Assembly: GCA_963839575.1 (NCBI GenBank)
Contig: CAWIVQ010000003.1
Coordinates: 2,269,378-2,333,377 of the forward strand
Reading direction: 5' to 3'
From: an uncultured Actinomycetes bacterium
Lineage (GTDB): Bacteria > Actinomycetota > Acidimicrobiia > IMCC26256 > PALSA-610
DNA: 64,000 nucleotides
The notes under the pieces: generated by a model
What the model was told of the DNA's origin: nothing
The model's input: only the letters and a program-made list of their open reading frames with translations
The model's database searches: none
Part shown: positions 5,762 to 39,614 of the stretch, one piece after another
Numbering within the stretch: the first letter of the stretch is position 1
Layout: each line of letters starts with the position of its first letter
Translations under genes and position numbers: made by a program

Positions 5762-8180
5762 TCAGCGAAGCTCGTACAGCGGGTTCACGATGGCGAGACG
5801 GCCGTGGTGGTCGATCGCCATGCCCTCGACCGTCACGGTGGCGCCGATGGTGATGCCCTCGATCCCGCGGCGGCCGAAGAACACGACCGACACCGCGCCG
5901 GTCTCGTCGGCGACCGTGCACTCGAGGCTCGGGGCGCCGCCGAGGGGCTCGACGCGGATCGCCTGGATGCGGCCGTGCACCTTCACGTTCTCGCGGCAGC
6001 GCACTTCGTCGATCGGGTTCGCGCCGGGGGGCCGCACGAGCGTCGCGGTGTCGACGTGAGCCTTGCCGTTGCCCTTGGCCTTCCCGTTCTTGACGCCGTT
6101 GCCGTCGCCCGAGCCCTTGCCGTTGGTCCTGGCGTTGCCGAACGGTGCCGGCGCCGCCTCGCCGGGAACGACGATCGTCTCGCGGTCGTCGAAGTGGAAG
6201 GGCACGATGGTGACGTTCGCGTGCGGCAGCCGGGAGATCTCCCGCGACAGCGACTCCGCGGTCTGGTCGTGCAGGATGCGGTGCCACGCGCCGTTGAACT
6301 TTCGTTCCGGCAACAGCACGCAGACCTCGGAGTCGCCGGAGCTCAACTCGTGCGCGACGGTCTCGACCGCGGACCGCGTGAGCCGCCGGTCGGGGCAGTC
6401 GATCAGCTCGAGGCCGAGGTTCGTCAAGCCGTGCTCGCGCCACTCCGCCGCGAGCGTGTCGGCGCCGTGCTCGTCGATGACGAAGTGCACCGCCCGCAGC
6501 TCGTCCGGTCGCAGCGCGCGTCCGAACTGCATGGCCCGGGCCACGGCGAGGTCGAGCCGGTCGACGAACACCATGACGACGAGTCGCTTGCGGACGGGCG
6601 CGGCGACCGCCTTGGGCACGTCGTGCGCCAGGGCTTCGTCCTCCGTCTTGTACTGCTTGGCCAGTCGCATGAGGAAGAAGACCATGATCGGCACGAACAC
6701 GACGATGACCCAGGCGCCGTGCGTGAACTTGAAGATCGCGATCACGATGTCGACGACGAACGAGAGGAAGGCGCCGAACCCGTTGACGAACAGTCCGCAT
6801 CGCCAGCCCTCCTCCTTCTCGCGGATGTGGTGCTTGGCCATGCCCGCCTGCGACAGCGTGAACGACGTGAACACGCCGATCGCGTAGAGCGGGATGAGCC
6901 GGTCGACCTTGGCGTCGGTGGCCAGAAGGAGCACGATCGCGGCGGCCGCGAGGAAGATGATCCCGTTCGAGAAGACGAGGCGGTGACCGCGCTTGGTGAG
7001 TTGACGGGGCATGAAGTTGTCGCCGGCGTGGAACGACGCGAGTCGGGGAAAGTCGGCGAAGCTCGTATTGGCGGCGAGCACGAGGATGAGCATCGTGCCG
7101 GCCTGCAGGCAGTAGTAGAGGATGTTGCCGACGGCCCCGCCGCCGTACGCGAGCTTGCCGATCTGCGAGATGACGGTCGGCGTGCCGTTCGAGAACGGCG
7201 CCACGTGCATCTTGGCGTCCATGATCGACAGTCCGAGGAACATCACACCGAGCAGCGAGCCCATGACGACGAGGGTCGAGCGCGCGTTCTTCCATTCCGG
7301 CTTCTTGAACGCCGGGACGCCGTTCGAGATGGCCTCGACGCCGGTGACCGCGGCGCCGCCCGACGCGAACGAGTGCAGCACGACGCGAGCGCTCGCGCCC
7401 ATCAAGATGCCGCTGCCCTTGGTTCCCGAACGGCATGAGCACCGGAGGCGTGCTGGTAGTTCGCGCGACGCCAGGCTGCCGTTGAACGCCTTGACGACGC
7501 CGACGCCGATGAGGATTCCCATGTTGAGGATGAAGAAGTAGGTCGGGACTGCGAAGACCTTCCCGGATTCGCGCACGCCGCGCAGGTTGCCCCACGCGAT
7601 GATCACGACGAACGCGATCGAGATCCACAGGATCCACGGGATCGAACACCGAGAAGGCCGAGGCGAGGGCGGCCGTACCGGCGGCGACCGACACCGAGAC
7701 GGTCAACACGTAGTCGGTGAGCAGCGCGACGCCGGCGACCTGCGCGGGCAGCAGCCCGAAGTTGTCGCGCGTCACCATGTACGCGCCGCCGGCGGTGGGG
7801 TAGGCCTTGATCGTCTGGCGGTACGACAGGATCAAGAAGAACAAGACGACGAGGAGCGCGGTCGTGATCGGTACCACGAGCGCGAACGCACCCAGTCCGA
7901 CCACGGGGATCAGGACGCGCAGCATCTCCTCGGTGGCGTAGGCCGACGACGACAGGTTGTCCGACGCGAAGACGGCGAGGGCGGTGGGCTTGCCCAGACG
8001 TTCGTGCTCGAGTTGCTCGGTGTGCAGCGGTGGCCCGAGCAGCTTGTTCTTCAGGCGGTAGCGCACGCTGTCGGGGGGCAGCTCGAGACCGGGAACGACG
8101 GGCACCGGCATCGGCAGCGAAGACGCCGTGTCCTTGGCGGCAGGAGCCGTGTCGGTCGTCGGAGTCGGCTCGGTGAGCAA
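5762..8180 (-). CDS. APC-family amino acid permease with cytosolic C-terminal extension ending in an OB-fold-like domain (one frame change at about 7638-7640)
   Basis: N-terminus LGKPTALAVFASDNLSSSAYATEEML is followed by about 12 TM segments. The C-terminal region has a G/K-rich linker and then VKVHGRIQAIRVEPLGGAPSLECTVADETGAVSVVFFGRRGIEGITIGATVTVEGM. Confidence 0.8.
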
Positions 8181-8387
8181 GGGTCTCTCCTGCGATGCAT
8201 CCAGGCGGCCGGCCGGCCGCCGTTCTCATCACACCAGGACACCCGTCAACGGGGTATCAGGAACGCATCGGGCTCCGTCAAGAAGATGTCAAAAGCCCCG
8301 GGCCGGGCGCTCACGGGGCGGTCACAGCGGGCGTGGTTCAATGCTTCTCTACGTCGAGAACGCGCAATGCCGCCGGGCGGTTCAGGG

Positions 8388-11300
8388 ATGAGGATCGGGC
8401 GGCGCGTCGGAGTCGTGGCGCTCGTCGTCGCGGCCTCGACCGGCCTGCTCGCAACGACGCCGGTGCGGGTTCCGGCGCTCACCACCGCCCGGCCGTCCAT
8501 CCCACTCTCCCCGCCGACGGGGATTACCGGGGCGCCGGGCACTCGCCGGGCGGCGCGGGCCATCCGGCACCAGGTTCCCGACATCGACCTCGACCACGTC
8601 GTGGTGCGATTCCGTTCTCGTCCGGCCGATCTCTCGGCCCGCCTCGCGCTCGACGGTGCGCGCATCAGCCGCGTCGATCTCGGGGACGAGCTGGACCGAG
8701 CTCGCCACGCCGAATCACACCGCACGCCGGGTGCGCGCCGCGTTGCTCGCGCGATCCCGCCGTCGCCCAGGTCGTGTTCTCGTACATCCGCCACGCGTCG
8801 ACCCTGCCCAACGATCCGCAGTGGGCGGCGAAGCAGAGCAGCGTACCTCTCGCCGCTCCGGCTCGATCGGGCCTGGGACATCAGCCAGGGGAGCGGCGTG
8901 ACCGTCGCGGTCGTCGACACCGGCACCGATCTCGACCATCCTGACCTCGCGGGCCAGCTCGTTGCGGGTCGCAACGTGCTGCACCCGGGCGCATCGCCGC
9001 AGGACGACAACGGGCACGGCACGCTGGTCAGCGGGCATCGTCGCCGCAAGGACGAACAACAATCGCGGCGGTCGTCGGCATCGCGCCGAGCGCGAAAGTC
9101 ATGCCGGTGAAGGTGCTCGACTCCAGCGGGAGCGGGAGCGACGCCGACATCGCGCTCGGCATCGACTGGGCGCGCACTCACGGCGCCAAGGTGATCAACC
9201 TCTCGCTTGGGCGGGTCGTTCGACGATCCGATGCTCGCCGACGCCGTGCAGAACGCGATCGCCGCCGACATCGTCGTCGTGGCCGCCGCCGGGAACGACG
9301 TCGGCCGAGACGGTCGGGTTCCCGCCGCCGTACCCGGGTGTCATCGCGGTGAGCGCGACGACCGCCACTGGTGCACTCACGTCGTTCTCGAGCTACGGAT
9401 GGCGGATCGACGTCGCCGCGCCCGGTCTCGACATCACCTCGACCGCGCTCGGTTCGGGCGACCAGTACGCGACCGAGTCGGGTACGTCGTTCTCGTCGCC
9501 GATCGTTGCCGGCGTCGCCGCGCTCGTTCGCTCGAGGCACCCGACGTGGACGCAGCAACAGGTCGGCGACCAGATCCGCAACACCGCGCGCGACGTCGGG
9601 CTCCCGGGAGTCGATCCCGCGTTCGGGCACGGCATCGTCGACCCGCTCGCCGCGCTCGGCGGGCCTCCGGCCGCGCCGCACCCGGCCGTGCGGGTCGGTG
9701 CCGACGAACCGAACGACACCGCGACCGATGCCACGCCCGCTGGCGATCGGTGCCGTCGCACAGCGCGCAGATCGCGCCCGAGACCGACGAGGACTGGTAC
9801 CGCGTGAACTTCGTCGTCGGCGGGCTGGTACTCGATCCACGTGCCGACCGGTCCGGCCGCGCTCGACCACGAGATGGACCCGATCGTCGAGCTGTACCAC
9901 CCCGACAATTCGTTCGCGGCATCGCAGGAGCTCGCGGGCGGCGACCTCCTCTTCGACGTCACGGTCACCGGCAACTACTTCGTGCGGGTGCGGAACGTGA
10001 ACGGCAGTACGGCGCCGTACACGATCGTCGTGCAGGTCGACCTCGCACACCGGCGCGTTTCGCTGCCGTCGCTCGACGTCGACTTCGGCACGCCCGCGCA
10101 GTCGGTCGGGATCGCCGACGTCGACGGCGACGGGCGCAAGGACGCGCTCGTCGCGTTCGGTGACGCAACACGGCGTTTCCCGACACGCTCGCCGTGTTCG
10201 CCCAGACGCCGAACCGCTCCCTCTCGCTGCTCGCCGCGCTGCCGACCGATCGTGATGACGGGGGGCGGGATGGCGACCGGCGATCTCGACGGCGACGGCA
10301 GGCCGACGTGGCGATTCCCGTGAGCGGGGGCATCGACGTCTTCGCGAACACCTGAGCGCGAGCACGGTTCCCACCTTCATCGCCGCGCCGGGGACGACGA
10401 GCGGTCGCGATCGCCGACGTCGACGGCGACTCGCACAACGACATCGTCGCGGTGGGAACGTTCGGGCGTGAAGGTGTTCTGGGGGCCGTCGTTCACGGCG
10501 CCACCGACCTCGACGAGCGTGAGCGTCAGCGGCGGCGGGGTCGACCGTGGCGGTCGGCAACGTGACCGGCCACGGCGACAACCTCCTCGACGTCGTGACC
10601 TCGGGTGTCAACGTGTTCCGGCAGACGTCGGCGCGCTCGTTCGCGGCCGCGGTGCTGCACACCGTCACGAATGGTTCGGCAGTCGCCGTCGGCGACGTCA
10701 ATGCCGATACCGCGCCCGACGTCGTGACGAGCGTCCACGCGAGTCCGGGGGCAGTGAGCCGGTTGGTGTCACGACGGCAGCGGCGGTCTCGTCGCGGCGG
10801 CGGCGTTGCCGACCGAGGCGAAGCCCGAGCCGATCGCGGTTTCCGACGTCGACGGCGACGGGCGCGACGACATCGTCGTCGTGCACGACTTCGTGTCGAC
10901 GGGGTTCTTCTCGGCGCCCGCCGACGTCGGATTGGCTCCCCCAGACCGCGCCCGGCGTCTTCGGCGCGGAAGCAGACGTTCTCGATCGACGACTTCAACA
11001 CCGACCTACGACTCGAAGGCCCTCGCGGTCGGCGACCTCGACGGCGACGGTCGCGACGACGTGCTGGTCGCCACGGGGTTCGGCATCGCGATCCTCGTGC
11101 AGAACTCGGGGCTGCTCCCTTCGCTCGGCGCAGCCTGGGTCGTCGACGCGCAGCCGCAGTCGCTCGCGACGAACGTGGCGGCCGGCGTCGAATCCGACCG
11201 TCACGCTCGGGCGCAACGTGACGAACGTCGACGGGACGACGGTGCAGCTCCGCGATGCCGTGGGGCACACCGTGGCGGCAACGGTTTCCTACAACGCGTG

Positions 11301-12438
11301 GCGCGCCGGATCACCGATCACGCCGACGGCGGCGTTGGCGAACGGTCGGTACTCGATCCATCTCGCCGGGCTGACCGACACCGGGGGCGAGACGCTCGCC
11401 GACGCGGGCACGACGTTCACCGTCGGCCCCGCGCCCGACGAGATCGCGCCGCAGACCACGCTGCACTCGCCGCCGTCGGGGTTCCGCACGAGCGCGACCG
11501 CCACGCTGTCGTTCAGCGCGAACGAGGCGCGGTTCGGCGTTCTGGTGCAGCGACAACAATCAGCCGTACCACGTGTGCACGTCACCGCAACAGCGTCACC
11601 GCGACCGCCGGGGACGCACTCGTTCCGGGTGTTCGCGCGCGACGTTGCCGGCAACGAGGATCCGACCCCGGCGCTGGCGACGTGGACGTACCGCCTCGCC
11701 GGTGCACGGCTACTGGATGCTCGGGGGTACGGGCACGATCTATCACTTCGGCAACGCCCCGGGCCTCGGGAACGCGTCGACCGCGTACGCGGCCGACGTC
11801 GACGTCTCCGTCTCGGGCTACGGCTACTGGATCGTCGACGCCGTCGGCCGGGTGTTCGCCTTCGGCGACGCCCGGTCGTACGGCAACGCGCCGGCGCTCG
11901 GCGCCGGCGATTCCGTGACGAGCATCAGCCGGACCGCTACCGGGAACGGCTACTGGCTGTTCACCCGGCGCGGGAGGGTGTACCCGTTCGGCGACGCGCA
12001 CTTCTACGGCGACCTGCGCAGCGTCGCGCTCAACGGCGGCGTGGTCGATTCGGTCCGGACGCCGTCGGGCCACGGCTACTACATGGTCGCGTCGGACGGC
12101 GGAGTGTTCTCCTTCGGCGACGCGCGCTTCCACGGATCGACCGGGCGGCACGAAGCTCAACCAGCCCGTCGTGGGACTCGTCGCCGACTCCCGACGGCCG
12201 CGGCTACTGGCTCGTCGCGGCCGACGGCGGCGTGTTCGCGTTCTCGGCGCCGTTCCGCGGCTCGATGGGCGGCGTGCACCTCAACCGGCCGATCGTGGGC
12301 ATGGTCGCGTTCGGGAACGGCTACCTGATGGTCGGCGCCGACGGCGGCATCTTCGACTTCTCGACCAAGCCGTTCCTCGGATCGCTCGGCGGCAACCCGC
12401 CCGCGGTGCCGATCGTCTCGGTCGCCGCAATCGGCTGA
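8388..12438 (+). CDS. giant secreted multidomain protein: signal peptide, S8 subtilase, PPC domain, FG-GAP/VCBS repeats, Ig-like domains, 6 GYW-type repeats (more than 10 frame changes)
   Basis: [22 protein letters not shown] signal. Catalytic triad [44 protein letters not shown]...DEDWYRV (PPC). Repeats [47 protein letters not shown]. Ig-like [22 protein letters not shown]. Then [14 protein letters not shown] repeats up to the stop at 12438. Confidence 0.7.
11704..12438 (+). repeat. six tandem ~42-aa GYW / DGG(V/I)F.FGDA.F.GS coding repeats (putative beta-propeller blades)
   Basis: [142 protein letters not shown]. Confidence 0.8.
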
Positions 12439-12479
12439 CGTCCGCGACGCACCCGGTCGGCCGCGGTCGACGGTGTTCG

Positions 12480-13173
12480 TCAGCGAACGACGGCCGCGGT
12501 CTCGGCGCCCGTCTCGGTCTCGGACGCGTTCTCGGACGTCGCGGTCGTCGTCGCGCTCCGCCGCGGCGCAGCCCCGCTTCCGCCGGCGCGGAGTCGCGGA
12601 TGGCGCCGCCCGGGGGATCCGCTCGCGGCTCGCGCGCCGGCGCCGAGCGGCGGGGCGCCAGGACCCGGAAGGTGACCAGCAAGAACACGAACAGGCCGCC
12701 GGTGAGCGCGACCCACTGGACCGCGAGATTCCGGTTGTCGGCGCCCGACGTGAATCCGTGCACGGTCGCGAGCACGAACATCGGGATGCTCGTGAGGTGC
12801 ACGGCGTGCCAGAGCTTGCGCGGCAGCTTCTTCATCATCCACGACGTGAGCTGGATCGCGACGAGCAGGTACGTCGCGGCGATGCCCCACGCGACCGCGC
12901 CCGGGCGCCACGGCGGAGGCGAACGGTACGAACAGCTCGCGCGGGCCGAAGTAGACGAAGTTGTCGGCCCACAGCGCGACGATGTGCACGCCGACGAACA
13001 CGATCGACAGCGTCCCGAGGAACTTGTGCAGATCGAGCAGCCACGCCGGCACGCCCTTGCGCCGGATGAGGCGGGTCGACAGCGCGAGTCCCCAGAGGAT
13101 GCTGAGCGTCACGATCGACCCACGCGACCAATCCCGACGCGCGCGCCGCGTACCACGAGAGCTTCGGGTTCAA
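12480..13173 (-). CDS. ferric-reductase-like transmembrane domain protein (di-heme cytochrome b, MsrQ/YedZ-like), 2-3 frame changes
   Basis: NPKLSWYAARASGLVAW, HKFLGTLSIVFVGVHIVALW and HAVHLTSIPMFVLATVHGF (two His pairs, each with 13 intervening residues) are spread over three frames. The 3' end is uncertain. Confidence 0.7.
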
Positions 13174-13194
13174 CTCGCCGAGCAGCGACGAGCG

Positions 13195-14100
13195 TCACGT
13201 CGCCGGTCCCGATTCGACGCATCCCGCCGTCGTCGAGGAAGAGCCACGCCGACACCCGCGGCGTGCTCCGCGAGGCGCGTCCCGGCGTCGGCGCCGCCGA
13301 TGACGATCGACTTCGCGATCCCCTCCGCCCACCACGCGTCGCGGGCGGCCACGACGACGGCCGCGACCCCGGACGCGGGCCGAGTCGCCCGTCGCGGGGT
13401 CGATGAGGTGGTGGTACCGGCGACCGCCCCGCGTCCAGCCGCGGATGCGGGTCGGTGCTGGTGACGATCGCGCCGTCGCGAGCGGGAACCGGAACGCGAC
13501 GCGCGCCTCGTCGAGCGGATCGAGCACCGGGAACGTCCCACCAGCCGGCGCGGCGGCGGTTCGCCGCGGGCGCGGAGGTCGCCGCCCATGCCGACGAGCG
13601 CGGTGCGGGCGCCGCGGTCGACGAGGCCGCGCGCGACGAGATCGGCCGCGAGGCCCTTGCCGACACCGCCGAGATCGAGGCGGACGCCGCGGCGGGAGCC
13701 GGACGCGCGAGCGTTCCTCGTCGATCTCGACCGCGCCGAAACCGGGCGCGGGGATGCGTGCGGCCTCGTCATCGGCCGATGCCGCGACATGCTCGAACGT
13801 CCGGTCGTAGCCGACCGCTTCGAGCGCGTCGAGGATCGTCGGGATCGAACGTCCGTCGGTCGCGCGGTGCAGATCGGCCGCGCACGTGAGTGCGAGCAGC
13901 ATCGACCCGCTCACGTCGGTCCACTCGCCCGCGCCGGCGTTGAGCGCGGCGAGCTCGCTGTCGCGGCGGAACCGGCTCCAACACTGTTCGAGCCGTTCGA
14001 GCTCGGCGAACGCCCAGTCGACGACGCCGTCGGGCGCGTCGCCGACGACGACGTGCGCGTCGCTTCCCATCGCGCGGGCGTGGCGCTCGACCAGTACGCG
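13195..14100 (-). CDS. apbE: FAD:protein FMN transferase ApbE (at least 4 frame changes)
   Basis: ERHARAMGSDAHVVV, LDLGGVGKGLAADLVARGL, YHHLIDPATG and AARDAWWAEGIAKS are spread over three frames in ApbE order. The start is uncertain (ATG 14070 or slightly upstream). Confidence 0.75.
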   Translation of the reverse strand, partial: RVLVERHARAMGSDAHVVVGDAPDGVVDWAFAELERLEQCWSRFRRDSELAALNAGAGEWTDVSGSMLLALTCAADLHRATDGRSIPTILDALEAVGYDRTFEHVAASADDEAARIPAPGFGAVEIDEERSRVRLPPRRPPRSRRCRQGPRGRSRRARPRRPRRPHRARRHGRRPPRPRRTAAAPAGGTFPVLDPLDEARVAFRFPLATARSSPAPTRIRGWTRGGRRYHHLIDPATGDSARVRGRGRRRGRPRRVVGGGDREVDRHRRRRRRDAPRGARRGCRRGSSSTTAGCVESGPAT

Positions 14101-14142
14101 TTCGCCGGCGCGTCGCGGACGGATCGACTGTCGGTGTGCCGG

Positions 14143-14921
14143 TCACGGGCACTTGGATCCGGTGCACGGCGGCGGCGGGGGCGGCGGAGGTGTGGTGACG
14201 ACCGGCGTCGGCGCGTTGGTGGCCGGGGGCGTGGTCGGCCGGGGCTGACGTGCGGCGTGGTCGGCGCCGGCCCCGGGTCGGCTGCGACGGCGCGGCGCGG
14301 GCGACGGGCGCGGGCGCGCCGGGAGTGCTCGGGCTCGCGAAGCCTCCGCCGCCCGACCGACGGCGCGGGCGTGCCGGACCCCGGGTTGGGTGACGACGGC
14401 GCCGGCCACCCCGAAGTACCCGCACCGCTCGGGTTCTTCGGTCCCGTGCCGGCCGCGGGTTGGGTCGCGGCCGGCACGGTCGTGAGGCCCTTCGGCAACG
14501 ACGGGGCCGCGACCGGGCGACCCCACTGATCGACGTAGACCACGTGATGCACGTCTTTGACGACGACCTTCGGCGGCGGTGCGGGTCGCGTGGTCGGTGG
14601 ACCCGCGGCGACGGCGCGCGCTCGACGACGCGGCCGATGCCGGCGCCTGCGCTCCGAACGCCGCGACCATCGAGAGGAACGCCGACGACGACAGCCCGAC
14701 GCTGAGGATCCGGCCCGCGGCCGCCGGATGGCGGCGCCGGGCGCGCTGCGCGGATGGGGACGAAGTCGCAGCCGAGGGGTGGTCTCACTCGCTGGTGTGG
14801 GCGTCGGCACGAGGGTCGGTGCGAAGCCGCCGCCGCGGTGCGCGGCGTTGGCGCGGCTCCGGCGGCCTTGCGGGCGGCGAGCCGCGCGAGGCGCTCGTCG
14901 AATCGGGGTTCGCTCGGTCAT
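14143..14921 (-). CDS. membrane-anchored Pro/Thr-rich hypothetical protein (paralog of next gene; several frame changes)
   Basis: ATG 14921 lies 9 nt after the upstream stop. Rebuilt sequence has a basic N-terminus, the hydrophobic segment FLSMVAAFGAQAPASAA, KVVVKDVHHVVYVDQWGRPV, a long P/T/G-rich region and the end PPPPPPPPCTGSKCP. Confidence 0.45.
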
Positions 14922-14931
14922 GCCCGCCGCC

Positions 14932-15538
14932 TCAGTGGTCGCAGTTCCACACGCCGTTGTCCTCGAGCTGCGGCTGACGCAGTTCGGCGGCATCGGCGGG
15001 ATCGGCTTGTTCTTCGGCCAGTCCTTCGGCACCCCGACCGGCCAGGTCGTGGTCGTCGTGGCGGGATGGTCGTCGCCGGCGACGGCGGGGTCGTTTGCGT
15101 GGTCGGGGCGGCCGGTCGAGTCGTCGGCGTGGTCCGGGCCGGCGCCGGTGGTTGGCGGTCGTCCCGGGGTCGCGAGGATGCGGGCTGCGAGGTCGGCGTC
15201 GTCGTATCGCTCGCGGTCCCGCCGCCGGGAGTCGTCAGGCTCGCGCCGGTGGGGCCCGCGACGCCGCCGCTGACCCGTGACGGCGCAGATCCACTACCCG
15301 CCGCCGCGCTCCCGCTCTCGCCGTTGGCCGTCTCGACGACGTAGCGGTCGTAGATGTCCCGGCGTTCGACGACGACGCCCGGTTTCGCGGCCGCCGCGAC
15401 GGCCGCGCTCGCATGGTGGCGGGCGCCGCCGCCGAAGCCGAGGAACGAGGCGCCGGTGACCGATGCGCCGGCGACGATGCTGCTTCCGAGCACGAGCGTT
15501 GCCGCGCTGGCCGCGGCGAGTGCCGTTCTTCTTTCCAT
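14932..15538 (-). CDS. secreted/membrane-anchored Pro/Thr-rich hypothetical protein (frame change near the 3' end)
   Basis: MERRTALAAASAATLVLGSSIVAGASVTGASF signal/anchor, KPGVVVERRDIYDRYVVETANG, a T/P-rich tract, and the rebuilt C-terminus KPIPPMPPNCV.QPQLEDNGVWNCDH. Confidence 0.5.
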
Positions 15539-15664
15539 CGGGTTCCCCCCTCGACGTGACTCCAGGGTGTTTCGGCGGTTTTGGCCTCGGGACTCAAGTA
15601 CTTCGACCGAGGTTTTCGCCGGCCTTATACCGGACTTGTGGTCGAGAAGGTGCCGATCCGGTGG

Positions 15665-16293
15665 CTAGTGCTGGGGGCGGACGACGATGATCGGGGTCAG
15701 CTCGTCGTTCTGGCCGAGCGGATTGTCGAGCAGCACCTCGCGCACGGCTGGCGCGCGACCGGGAACCCGCTGCTCGTGCCGAGCACCTCGACGTTGATGT
15801 TGTTGGCATCGACGATCGCGACGGGCGTCCCCACGTGTGGCGCGATCTCTTCCGCGGCGGCGTCGGGATCGGCCGGGCCGAGCATCGCGAACTCGTCGAA
15901 CGGCTTCACGGTCGCGGGGCTGAAGCCGTCGATCTCGGAGATGCGATGGCCGGCGACCCGGTAGAAGTCGCCCCGGCGCCGGAGGACGAATCGGGTGAAC
16001 GAGCCGATGATCATCGCGAACAACATGCGCCACCAGCCCGCCTGCATGATCGCGACCTGCATCTTGCGCGGATCCGAGTAGCCGACGTCGTCGGGGTGTT
16101 TGGTGACGCCTTTGACGAGGAGCTTGGCGAGCACGCCGGGGCGGACGACGGAGTGATGGATCACGCGGCCCTGCGAGATCGTGACGAACTTCTCCGAGAC
16201 CGCGAGCCAGTCGCCCGGTTGCAGCACCGGCTTCACGTACTCGTCGAAGACGGGCTCGAGTGGTTCTTTGATGTGGATCAGATGCGTTTGCAC
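15665..16293 (-). CDS. CofE-like (F420-0:gamma-glutamyl ligase family) protein, one frame change near 15760
   Basis: LAVSEKFVTISQGRVIH...VAIVDANNINVEVLGTSSG is typical of the PF01996-type fold. The C-terminus REVLLDNPLGQNDELTPIIVVRPQH is in a second frame. Confidence 0.65.
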
Positions 16294-36823: not shown

Positions 36824-39342
36824 GTGATGGTGGCGCGGAGCCGGCGGTCGGTGGTGGCGGCGATCTCGACGGCCCTCTGTCTGGTCGCGTTCGTCTCGTT
36901 CGGCGACGATGGCGCGCAGCGGAGCGGCGGTCGACACGAACGCGCCCGTGCTCGTGTCGCTCGCGATGAGTCCCACGACCGTCGACACGTCCGCCGGCCC
37001 CGCGGTCGTCACGATCACCGCCCGGCTCACCGACGAACGCAGCCCGTCGATCGGGGGCACCGCGCCGCTCAGCCGGGTCGTGCTGACCGGGCCCGGCGGC
37101 CAGCAGCAGGCGACCGCCTACCTCTCGCAGGCGCAACGGATCTCGGGCACCGCGACCGACGGCGTCTACCGCTCGACCTTGACGATCCCGTGGCACGCCG
37201 CGCCCGGCCAGCTGGAACGCGTCGGCGGTGCTCGTCGACATCTCGGGCAACACGGCGACGCTGACCACGGCCGAATCTCGCCGCCGCCGGCTTTCCGTCG
37301 TCGATCGACCAGACGGGCGCGGGCGACACCACCGCGCCGCAACTCGTCGCGCTCGGCATCGCGCCCCCGAGCGTCGACACGTCGTTGCAGCCGGCGACGA
37401 TCACCGTGAGCGTGCACGCCGTCGACGACCTGAGCGGCGTGTCCGACGGCGTGGCGATGGCGGCGAGCCAGGTCGTGCTGCGCGGCCCGAGCGGCGCGCA
37501 CCACGCGCGCGCGACTCTGAGCGTCGACCACCGCACCGCGGGCAACGCCGTTCGACGCGACCTTCGTCGTCGCGGTCACGCTGCCGCGCTGGTCGGAGCA
37601 AGGTGACGTGGACCGTCGAGAGCGTGACGCTCGTCGACCAGGTCGGCAACCAGCAGACGCTGACCGCGCCGGGCGTCACGTTCACCCAGACGGGCATCGG
37701 CGACACCTCGCCGCCGCAGTTCCGCTCGTTCTCGCTGTCGACGACGAACGTCGACGTGCGGACCTCGTCGGCTTCGATCGTCATGCGGAGCCGCATCGTC
37801 GACGATCTCTCGGGTGCGGCCGACGGGTTGGTCGACTCCGCGACGTCGGTCGTGTTCGAGTCGCCGTCGGGCCGGCAGCGCCTGACCGTGCCGTTCGGTG
37901 CCGCGCAACGCGTCGGCGGGAACGGCCTCGACGGGAACTACTCGATACAGCGCGACCGTGCCCGCCCACGCCGAACCCGGCGTGTGGACGATGACCGACG
38001 CGTGGCCGACCGACCAGGCCGGCAACGTCGGGCACCTCTCGGCCGCCGACTGGGCGGCGAAGGGGTTCCCGGGTCGTTCACGGTCGTGTCCGACACGCCG
38101 CCCGACACCGGTCCGACGGTGCCGCCCGACCCGACGACCACGTCGACGACATCGGGTTCGGTGTTCACGACCACGACCGATGCGGGGGTCTCGACCACCA
38201 CGGTTCCGGGGAATTCGACGACCTCGGCTCCGATACGACGAGCACGACGAGCACGACGGTCGACCCCTCGAGCACGACGACACGACGATCCTTCCCGACA
38301 CGAGCGATCCCGACACGAGACCACGGTTCCCGGCGACGGCAACTCGACGTCGACCTCGACGACGGTGCCGGAAAGCACGACGTCGGTGCCGGACGCGACG
38401 AGCACGACGACGACGACCACGCACCGACGACGACCACGCACGACCGTGACGACGCACGACGCTCGACGACGACCACGGTCGCGCCCACGACGACGACCAC
38501 GGTCGCGCCCACGACGACGACCACGGTTCCCGTGCACTCCGACTCGCGGCGGTACGCCGCATCTGCGCCGGGCGAACGGCTACTGGTTCGCGACCACGAC
38601 CGGGCGCGTGCGTCGGCTTCGGCGCGGCCGCGCCCGCGTCGCATCGCGAGCGCGTCCTAGCCGGGCTCGGCGGCGTTCGACCGCGTCGTCGGGATCGCGA
38701 GCACGCCGTCGGGCAAGGGCTACTGGCTCGCGACCGCGCTCGGCGACGTGCGGGCGTTCGGCGACGCGCGCTCGTACGGGTCGATGCGCGGCCGACCGCT
38801 GACCCGAGCCGATCGTCGGCATCGCCGCGACACCGAACGGCGCACGGCTACTGGCTGGTCGCGACCGACGGCGGGATCTTCAGCTTCGGCAACGCGCACT
38901 TCTACGGCTCGACCGGCGCGATCCACCTGAACCAGCCGATCGTCGGCATGACGTCGACGCCGAGCGGCCACGGCTACTGGTTCGTCGCGGCCGACGGCGG
39001 CCTGTTCAGCTACGGCGACGCCCGCTTCTTCGGATCGATGGGCGCGACCCACCTGAACCAGCCCGTCGTCGGCATGACGCGCACGCCGAGGGGCCGCGGC
39101 TACTGGATGGTCGCCGCGCGACGGCGGGATCTTCAGCTTCGGCGACCGCGCGGTTCTTCGGGTCGACCGGCGCCATGCACCTGAACCAGCCGATCGTCGG
39201 CATGGCGGCCTCGCCGACGCGCGCACGGCTACTGGTTCGTCGCCGCCGACGGCGGGGTCTTCAGCTTCGGCGACGCCCGCTTCTTCGGGTCGCTTGCGGG
39301 CCCCGGCGCCGCGTGGTCGGGATGGCGGTTCGGGCGTCCTGA
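36824..39342 (+). CDS. large secreted protein: signal anchor, three ~115-aa Ig-like modules, Thr/Pro-rich linker, six GYW-type repeats (more than 10 frame changes)
   Basis: [27 protein letters not shown]. Modules each have D.xAP.L.S..(S/A)P..VDTS...DDLSG...G.W.V..V.L.D..GN. Linker [22 protein letters not shown]. Then [24 protein letters not shown]-type repeats. Confidence 0.65.
38575..39342 (+). repeat. six tandem GYW / DGG(I/V)F.FGDA.F.GS coding repeats (second copy of the repeat family in the window)
   Basis: [124 protein letters not shown]. Confidence 0.75.
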
Positions 39343-39614
39343 CCGTTCTGGGCCCGGCGAGAGGCGGTGGGGCGCGTGGGGCGAGTGTGACCTCGGTCTC
39401 CGGCCCCGGGCGCCTCTCAAGGGGCCCTCGAGCGGCCGACGATGAAGCCGAATCATGCTCTCCATCCCGAAGCAATCGGCAGCCGCGCGACACCGGCGCG
39501 CCCGGCGGACGACTTCGTCCCCGGCGGCTCGGATCGGGCCGCCGCGGCTCGCTCCGGTAGCGCCCGCACCGTCGCGAGCGTGGTGGTCGCGCCGGTGATC
39601 GTCGCCGCGTCCCG

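Follow-up and report, generated by a model that had tools for sequence, protein, structure and literature searches.

Cell-envelope proteinases of the Firmicutes, such as lactocepin PrtP and the streptococcal C5a peptidase ScpA, consist of an N-terminal peptidase S8 (subtilase) head, a PA insert, a stalk of Fn3-type beta-sandwiches and a covalent LPXTG/sortase or S-layer-type anchor. A gene for a protein of like outline (S8 head, stalk and putative wall anchor) was identified in a stretch of 64,000 nucleotides from an uncultured actinobacterium, referred to here as the window (assembly GCA_963839575.1, contig CAWIVQ010000003.1, positions 2,269,378 to 2,333,377 of the forward strand). The predicted protein differs from PrtP and ScpA in its parts, which are a pre-peptidase C-terminal (PPC) domain, an FG-GAP propeller, immunoglobulin (Ig)-like domains and a non-covalent propeller module, and the LPXTG-anchored peptidase model NF040553 produced weak matches only. 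The domain order was signal peptide, propeptide, S8 domain, PPC-like sandwich, seven-blade FG-GAP propeller, two Ig-like domains and a module of six repeats, the GYW module. With moderate confidence, we read the product as a secreted pre-pro-subtilase of about 1,350 amino acids (aa) that would work at the cell envelope, attached to the wall through a wall-binding propeller of a kind not described before. As a protease it simply adds to the known multidomain cell-envelope subtilases; its main interest lies in the C-terminal GYW module.

Proteins from Micromonospora, Kribbella, Dactylosporangium, Terrabacter and Saccharothrix (for example P0056, P0058, P0071 and P0091), annotated as "S8 family serine peptidase" or "FG-GAP-like repeat-containing protein", showed the same predicted core of signal peptide, S8, PPC, FG-GAP and Big_5. 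By domain prediction, Micromonospora, Kribbella, Terrabacter and other genera commonly have this S8-PPC-FG-GAP-Big_5 core. These Micromonospora-type homologues demonstrated 35-39% identity over 65-73% of the query but had no GYW module, and their C-termini were made up of fn3 and unassigned sequence, three CWB2 repeats (P0075) or PASTA (P0073). To our knowledge, no member of this group has been studied experimentally. The middle of the protein resembled the integrin alpha ectodomain and PAL (residues 452-1122 of the orthologue P0002), with a seven-blade FG-GAP propeller carrying DxDxDG loops followed, in integrin, by Ig-like legs; it differs in being bacterial and fused to a protease, at 12-19% identity and with no known beta-subunit partner.

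The GYW module shares its C-terminal position and its partners (endolysin amidases, NlpC/P60, CHAP and surface proteases) with CWB2, PASTA, PG_binding_1, LysM, SH3b, choline-binding repeats and the Listeria GW modules, and it appears interchangeable with CWB2 and PASTA in the homologues. It differs from these repeat-type modules in that no sequence relation was found and in its predicted structure, a six-bladed propeller of 42-aa, three-strand blades; we know of no wall-binding domain built in this way. Three-stranded blades occur in the RCC1/BLIP-II propellers. A literature search found no description of the GYW module, Acidimicrobiia wall propellers, FG-GAP subtilases or propeller wall-binding domains of endolysins.

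The G+C content of the window was about 70% and long spurious open reading frames (ORFs) were present in all frames. Three-frame translation and a plot of third-position GC phase (GC3) showed an unbroken plus-strand coding signal from position 8388 to the stop codon, within which the reading frame switched every 50-400 bases. An alternative in-frame ATG lies at 8367 (giving MPPGGSGM...), and the next ATG is the one at 8388 that the preliminary description had taken as the start. Joining the frames by a dynamic programme based on codon usage gave a product of 1,346 aa that was free of stop codons, but this used 23 shifts and overlooked a compensating frameshift cluster in the second Ig domain. 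When the insertions seen in a three-way DNA alignment were simply deleted the frame was still wrong, and a frameshift-aware protein-to-DNA alignment was used instead. Compared in this way with the intact orthologue P0001, the gene contained 28 frameshifts (26 extra nucleotides and 2 missing), and the corrected protein, counted from the ATG at 8367, had 1,348 aa, 71% identity to P0001 and no in-frame stops.

Among 5.8 billion proteins searched for homologues, about 37 were full-length relatives of 1,270-1,366 aa with 43-72% identity, 95-100% query coverage and E = 0. Almost all were metagenomic, and the few with taxon names were Acidimicrobiia. Thirty intact orthologues were single ORFs that did not vary in domain order or length and aligned collinearly throughout, signal peptide and final residue included. 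The gene was also one uninterrupted ORF in the short-read assemblies L002, L003 and L005, while the copies in long-read metagenome-assembled genomes (MAGs) of the MFD series had about 1-4 apparent frame breaks each, as judged by ORF fragmentation. The preliminary description had read the region as one protein across frames, and this was borne out by the absence of stops after frame correction and by the intact orthologues, in the short-read assemblies and among the 30 full-length proteins. The region is one gene encoding a single collinear protein.

The GYW module was 249 aa in length, did not vary in length across orthologues and had a mean column identity of 77%; all six C-terminal repeats reported earlier were present. 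The AlphaFold2 (AF2) model of the module had a predicted local distance difference test score (pLDDT) of 94.2 and a predicted TM-score (pTM) of 0.91, and showed six blades of three strands each, 18 strands in all, with the C-terminal PIVSVAA strand completing blade 1. The module is thus predicted with high confidence to be a closed six-bladed beta-propeller. Foldseek matched the model to generic WD40 and YWTD propellers only (TM-score 0.5-0.66, 9-18% identity, probability 1.00), so that the likeness to WD40 and YWTD/LRP6 propellers is one of closed topology at low identity, with no Pfam propeller family matched.

No sequence relative of the module was found in Pfam, NCBIfam or PDB for the copies searched, in agreement with its earlier description as uncharacterised. 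Spurious matches were limited to L24e, which was sub-threshold, and DUF5818, and RCC1_2 produced a single isolated sub-threshold match (22.8 bits) in one of 63 GYW members. Single-sequence and profile searches of PDB with the module gave nothing significant; the best match, the C-terminal domain of GyrA (E 0.054), was taken as chance. The claim that no characterised family covers the full architecture likewise stood, since the best NCBIfam model remained below its cut-off even for intact orthologues. The architecture is, however, not a one-off mosaic, as it belongs to a conserved syntenic orthologue family.

A GYW profile matched 19,477 representatives of 50%-identity protein clusters at E<=1e-3 and 8,873 at E<=1e-30, and the module stood almost always at the extreme C-terminus of its proteins. 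Among 135 family representatives, 83 had signal-peptide-like N-termini and 1 had another transmembrane-like segment. The partner domains were extracellular and diverse (fn3, DUF5122, PKD, TIG, DUF11, CAP, S8, phytase and NHL), and bacterial GYW proteins were also fused to NlpC/P60, CHAP, transglycosylase-like and L,D-transpeptidase (YkuD) domains.

Around a dozen GYW proteins are called "ribosomal protein L24E" in the Joint Genome Institute (JGI) annotation (P0127, P0128, P0130, P0133, P0139, P0143, P0196, P0210 and others), a name that goes back to spurious matching of PF01246 within the repeat, below the threshold and with E 0.001-0.7 in this analysis. The window itself contained a second GYW protein at 36900-39360 on the plus strand, with hidden Markov model (HMM) hits at 38661-39355 and six canonical repeats. 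It had three Ig-like domains (DUF7034, DUF7743 and DUF7035), a Thr/Pro/Asp/His-rich linker with HDDD-type repeats and about 17 frameshifts. In a related MAG, a full GYW module was located some 9 kb upstream of the orthologous protease gene (L007:558-1301, minus strand), which suggests several GYW proteins per genome.

Viral contigs were searched with subfamily-specific peptide patterns for the GYW repeats, which produced no match, and with a degenerate DNA motif for DGG[IV]F.FGDA, which retrieved 44 IMG/VR viral contigs (loci L013-L056). The GYW HMM detected 45 ORFs on these contigs with E values of 1e-7 to 1e-92, almost always at the ORF C-terminus. Among the 43 of these ORFs that were scanned, an N-terminal Amidase_2 domain was found in 27, GH25 in 1 and PG_binding_1 in 1, and the neighbouring genes belonged to tape-measure, major tail, sheath, head and endolysin PHROGs. 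Examples are L055:3484-4512 (plus), L041:6443-7381 (minus), L017:4493-5167 (minus) and L030:8021-9319 (plus, six repeats). The GYW repeats thereby occupy the canonical wall-binding slot of endolysins, in which a catalytic N-terminus comes first and the repeats follow. Some of the GYW viral contigs had a G+C content of just 42-46%.

Among GenBank phages, one record with GYW repeats was found and it is metagenomic; by these records, therefore, the module is absent from cultured actinobacteriophages. In this record, a mangrove-soil metagenomic phage (L057, MK557849.1 42901-46815), the repeats belong to a 1,304-aa protein named "glycoside hydrolase family 25". Its gene neighbours encode a minor tail protein and a "chitinase", and the protein may be a lysin associated with the tail.

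Cell-wall binding by the GYW module is thus argued by two independent lines, the viral endolysin layout and the known wall binders found in the GYW position of S8-FG-GAP-Big_5 homologues, namely three CWB2 repeats in P0075 and PASTA in P0073. Its place in the endolysin wall-binding slot makes the module a probable cell-wall anchor of a new type, from a large and probably wall-binding domain family shared with phage endolysins. The surface anchoring suggested in the preliminary description thereby gained independent support, which comes from domain context.

In the proposed mechanism, the signal peptide would direct Sec export of the protease and maturation would follow by removal of the N-terminal propeptide. 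The GYW propeller would hold the enzyme on the cell surface by binding non-covalently to peptidoglycan or a wall-linked polymer, and this propeller-type module would take the place of a covalent LPXTG anchor. Together, both Ig-like domains and the FG-GAP propeller with its calcium-type loops may form a calcium-stabilised stalk and ligand-binding platform resembling the integrin alpha ectodomain. Such a stalk would keep the PPC domain and the protease head off the wall, where the head could cleave extracellular or surface proteins. The same GYW module is reused on many other secreted proteins and on phage endolysins.

Several points weigh against the reading as a wall-anchored protease. The wall-anchor role is argued from domain context, and the very diverse partners of the module (fn3, PKD, DUF5122, CAP and phytase) would also fit a general glycan- or ligand-binding lectin. 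Most phage versions have 2-3 repeats, too few to close a six-bladed propeller as a monomer, and they may bind differently or need oligomerisation. The most distant syntenic orthologue (L009:2658-6164, plus strand, 42% identity) ends after the second Ig domain without a GYW module; the protease can therefore exist without it. In addition, the PPC and Big_5 matches of the window copy lie under the Pfam cut-offs, and the signal peptide and propeptide are putative.

The strongest rival leaves the protease as described but gives its GYW propeller another role, in which the propeller would not anchor the protein to the cell's own wall. It would act like a lectin or bind proteins, capturing external substrates (polysaccharide, other cells or prey walls), or it would drive oligomerisation. 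Beta-propellers are common as lectin and ligand-binding folds and the GYW model matched generic propellers only, the partners are heterogeneous (NHL and the DUF5122 propellers among them), the protease already has a second candidate binding propeller in the FG-GAP domain, and the L009 orthologue does without GYW altogether. Such a role is, however, less easily reconciled with the amidase-type architecture of 27 of the 43 viral-contig ORFs, with the fusion of GYW to several classes of peptidoglycan-remodelling enzymes, or with CWB2 and PASTA in the same slot of homologous proteases. The two readings overlap in that a lectin could equally well have a wall glycan as its ligand. We regard this rival as unlikely, though it keeps a real share of the probability.

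A wider proposal goes beyond this protease. The GYW module may be an undescribed wall-binding family that provides the main non-covalent surface display of Acidimicrobiia-type actinobacteria (the role of SLH, CWB2 and LysM elsewhere), recognises a lineage-specific wall structure and has been co-opted by phages as an endolysin targeting domain, with this protease as one of many displayed proteins. We hold this proposal tentatively, at a little under even chances. Around 19,500 protein clusters (50% identity) carry a GYW propeller that has no counterpart in Pfam, NCBIfam or PDB. Should the module be a wall binder, it would explain the display of surface proteins in a large lineage of soil and water bacteria, most of them uncultured, would give a handle to annotate thousands of "hypothetical" proteins as surface-located, and would offer a new targeting domain for lysin engineering against organisms without isolated phages. 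The positions of all features are given in Table 1.

Table 1. Positions, in the window, of the protease gene, its predicted domains and the adjoining genes
Feature	Position	Strand	Basis or remark
Whole coding region, multidomain S8 protease	8388..12438	+	about 1,346-1,353 codons; stop TGA 12436-12438
Signal-peptide-like N-terminus	8388..8480	+	putative; basic n-region and hydrophobic core
Putative N-terminal propeptide	8481..8867	+	putative; conserved in orthologues
Peptidase S8 catalytic domain	8889..9633	+	PF00082, 189.9-205.6 bits
PPC-like beta-sandwich (EPNDT...ETDEDWY...VRVRN)	9721..10044	+	PF04151, AF2
Seven-blade FG-GAP (integrin-type) propeller	10081..11138	+	FG-GAP_3 and FG-GAP above cut-off
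FG-GAP calcium-type loops	10117, 10282, 10416, ~10550, 10694, 10845, 11034	+	motif positions
First Ig-like domain (Big_5/Big_13-like)	11139..11430	+	sub-threshold here; orthologue matches
Second Ig-like domain	11431..11694	+	conserved Cys pair; corrected sequence
C-terminal GYW module	11702..12435	+	six repeats of about 42 aa; HMM hits 11687-12435
Span with 28 frameshift sites	8674..12184	+	frameshift-aware alignment and three-way DNA alignment
Upstream divergent gene, AA_permease_2 transporter, about 804 aa	5762-8180	-	syntenic in all relatives
Downstream convergent genes: ferric-reductase-like membrane protein, ApbE, Pro/Ala-rich protein	12440-15700	-	about 19 frameshifts

At the N-terminus of the protease, basic residues preceded a hydrophobic stretch of 16 residues, no other transmembrane-like segment was present, and the orthologues had a like feature. 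This fits the signal peptide claimed earlier, which stays a prediction from these sequence features. The propeptide region of the window copy had no Pfam match. A Fervidolysin_NPro-like match was found there in 1 of the 30 orthologues, and it was above the cut-off in the S8-PPC-GYW paralogue P0046.

The S8 domain matched PF00082 over the whole profile (1-288/288), with 189.9 bits for the raw stitch and 205.6 bits for the corrected sequence against a cut-off of 21.8. The codons of the catalytic residues were intact, with Asp at 8916-8918 (VVDTGTD), His at 9015-9017 (NGHGT) and Ser at 9487-9489 (SGTSFS), as was that of the oxyanion Asn at 9294-9296 (AAGND), and all four columns were invariant in 30 of 30 orthologues. 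The earlier identification of the catalytic triad was confirmed by this direct reading. With an intact Asp-His-Ser triad and oxyanion Asn, the domain is predicted to be active.

For the PPC domain, also proposed earlier, PF04151 matched the corrected copy over nearly the full profile (1-69/70) with 19.1 bits and E 0.0025, below the gathering cut-off of 25.9. It was found at E<=0.01 in 5 of 30 orthologues, and at the same position in the homologue P0056 it reached 31.6 bits, above the cut-off. The region was all-beta in the AF2 model.

The approximately seven FG-GAP loops of the preliminary description were all located. The seven DxDxDG calcium-type loops were directly readable, 6 of them canonical, and FG-GAP_3 (PF13517, 75-78 bits, 6 stretches) and FG-GAP (PF01839, 43-54 bits) were both above the Pfam cut-off.

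For the two Ig-like domains the support came from the orthologues and the model, and not from the scores of the window copy. Big_5 (PF13205) scored 18.4-21 bits in this copy against a gathering cut-off of 23.6, and the Big_5 and Big_13 scores overall were 18-25 bits, sub-threshold. Big_5 was detected in 27 (E<=0.01) and Big_13 in 17 of the 30 orthologues, and Big_5 reached 44-50 bits in homologues. The second Ig-like domain gave weak Big_7, Big_13 and Y_Y_Y matches only; it consisted of beta strands in the AF2 model with pLDDT mostly 86-93, and its Cys pair (C1072/C1082 of P0002) was invariant among orthologues. The AF2 model of P0002 residues 452-1122 was all-beta with a pLDDT of 78.8. Its top Foldseek matches in PDB were the integrin alphaIIb ectodomain, spanning propeller and Ig legs, and PAL lectin, with E values of 1e-10 to 1e-8.

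The frameshifts raised the alternative that the protease gene is a true pseudogene, its 28 frameshifts being real mutations after loss of function. The window and its relative L001 demonstrated 92.6% nucleotide identity over 20 kb, and the three-way DNA alignment with L001 and the outgroup L002 showed 24 window-specific insertions of 1-2 nucleotides in the gene that were absent from both. Over the 20 kb there were 67 single-base insertions and 28 single-base deletions. The indels were patchy: their density was 8.3/kb between 8.0 and 14.5 kb but fell to 1.4/kb in the flanks, with no demonstrated technical cause. This patchiness counts against assembly error as the source of the breaks and in favour of decay, the frameshifts being concentrated in the patch and the flanking permease and asparagine synthase genes nearly clean. 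The insertions are also of a non-homopolymer type, just 19 of the 67 extending a neighbouring identical base, and the gene of the close relative L001 likewise lies in three ORFs.

Against decay, the substitutions on the window branch were still under purifying selection. They comprised 60 synonymous and 38 non-synonymous changes, distributed 24/14/60 over the three codon positions (61% third position), and the branch was no more relaxed than that of L001 (100 synonymous and 75 non-synonymous). There were no nonsense codons in 1,348 corrected codons. The gene had about one indel per four to six lineage-specific substitutions (28 against about 100-165), far above the ratio expected of mutational decay. 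Bacterial pseudogenes are generally deletion-biased, and the excess of 26 insertions to 2 deletions runs opposite to this. The adjoining ApbE and ferric-reductase genes and the distant gene at 37-39 kb were equally damaged, and frame breaks occurred in long-read MAG copies only, with none in the short-read assemblies.

On these grounds the pseudogene alternative was rejected as improbable. Because of the lack of nonsense codons, the indel to substitution ratio, the insertion bias, the persisting selection and the like damage in other genes, we strongly infer that the 28 frameshifts arose as errors in a long-read assembly prone to insertions and not through gene decay. Heavily frameshifted genes of long-read MAGs can thus be recovered, and separated from pseudogenes, with the help of a close relative and an outgroup. 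Indel density correlated weakly with GC content and with substitution density (rho 0.44 and 0.47, respectively). Further indel patches were present in the window at about 36.7-40.6, 42-44 and 46.4-48.3 kb.

A further alternative is that the protein is a type VII secretion mycosin processing ESX substrates. The MycP mycosin model TIGR03921 is the closest curated model for the S8 domain and the best NCBIfam model overall (the window copy scored 239.5 bits, four intact orthologues 244.7-265.8 bits), and JGI names many of the orthologues mycosin. All of these scores, those of intact orthologues included, were below the curated equivalog cut-off of 278.75. The alignment reached profile positions 1 to about 308 of 353 and left the C-terminal part of the model unmatched. 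In contrast to mycosins, the protease had no transmembrane-like segment after the N-terminus that could serve as a C-terminal membrane anchor, and it had about 900 residues of predicted extracellular domains beyond the catalytic domain. No ESX, Ecc or Esx genes were found in 20 kb of conserved flanks of the protease and its relatives. Membership of the mycosin family was refuted by the scores, the missing anchor and the missing ESX locus, and is very improbable. The JGI names are therefore, judged from sequence, over-annotations, and the subtilase is mycosin-like without being a mycosin.

That the region holds several independent genes (a protease, an FG-GAP protein and a GYW protein), as gene callers split long-read copies such as L001 (932, 241 and 285 aa), is practically ruled out by the intact orthologues, all 30 of them single ORFs of constant domain order and length, and by domain junctions that have neither stop codons nor start contexts once the frame is corrected.

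The protease locus was syntenic in seven relatives, in the order FAD oxidase, amino-acid permease (minus), protease (plus), sulfotransferase (minus), two small genes, ApbE (minus), F420-ligase-like gene and asparagine synthase. The flanking genes were 75-93% identical and the protease 48-74% identical in these relatives, a contrast that fits a vertically inherited, fast-evolving surface protein. The gene is accordingly taken as vertically inherited in an uncultured actinobacterium whose nearest relatives are long-read soil MAGs. In the L009 genome, the permease and ApbE neighbours were absent together with the GYW module. The preliminary description had placed the gene convergent to an FRD-ApbE module, and the minus-strand ferric-reductase-like and ApbE genes were indeed found downstream; this neighbour is a matter of conserved synteny, and no functional connection between it and the protease is evident. 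The relatives additionally had the sulfotransferase and two small ORFs downstream of the protease, and the AA_permease_2 gene of the window showed one frame change near 7650.

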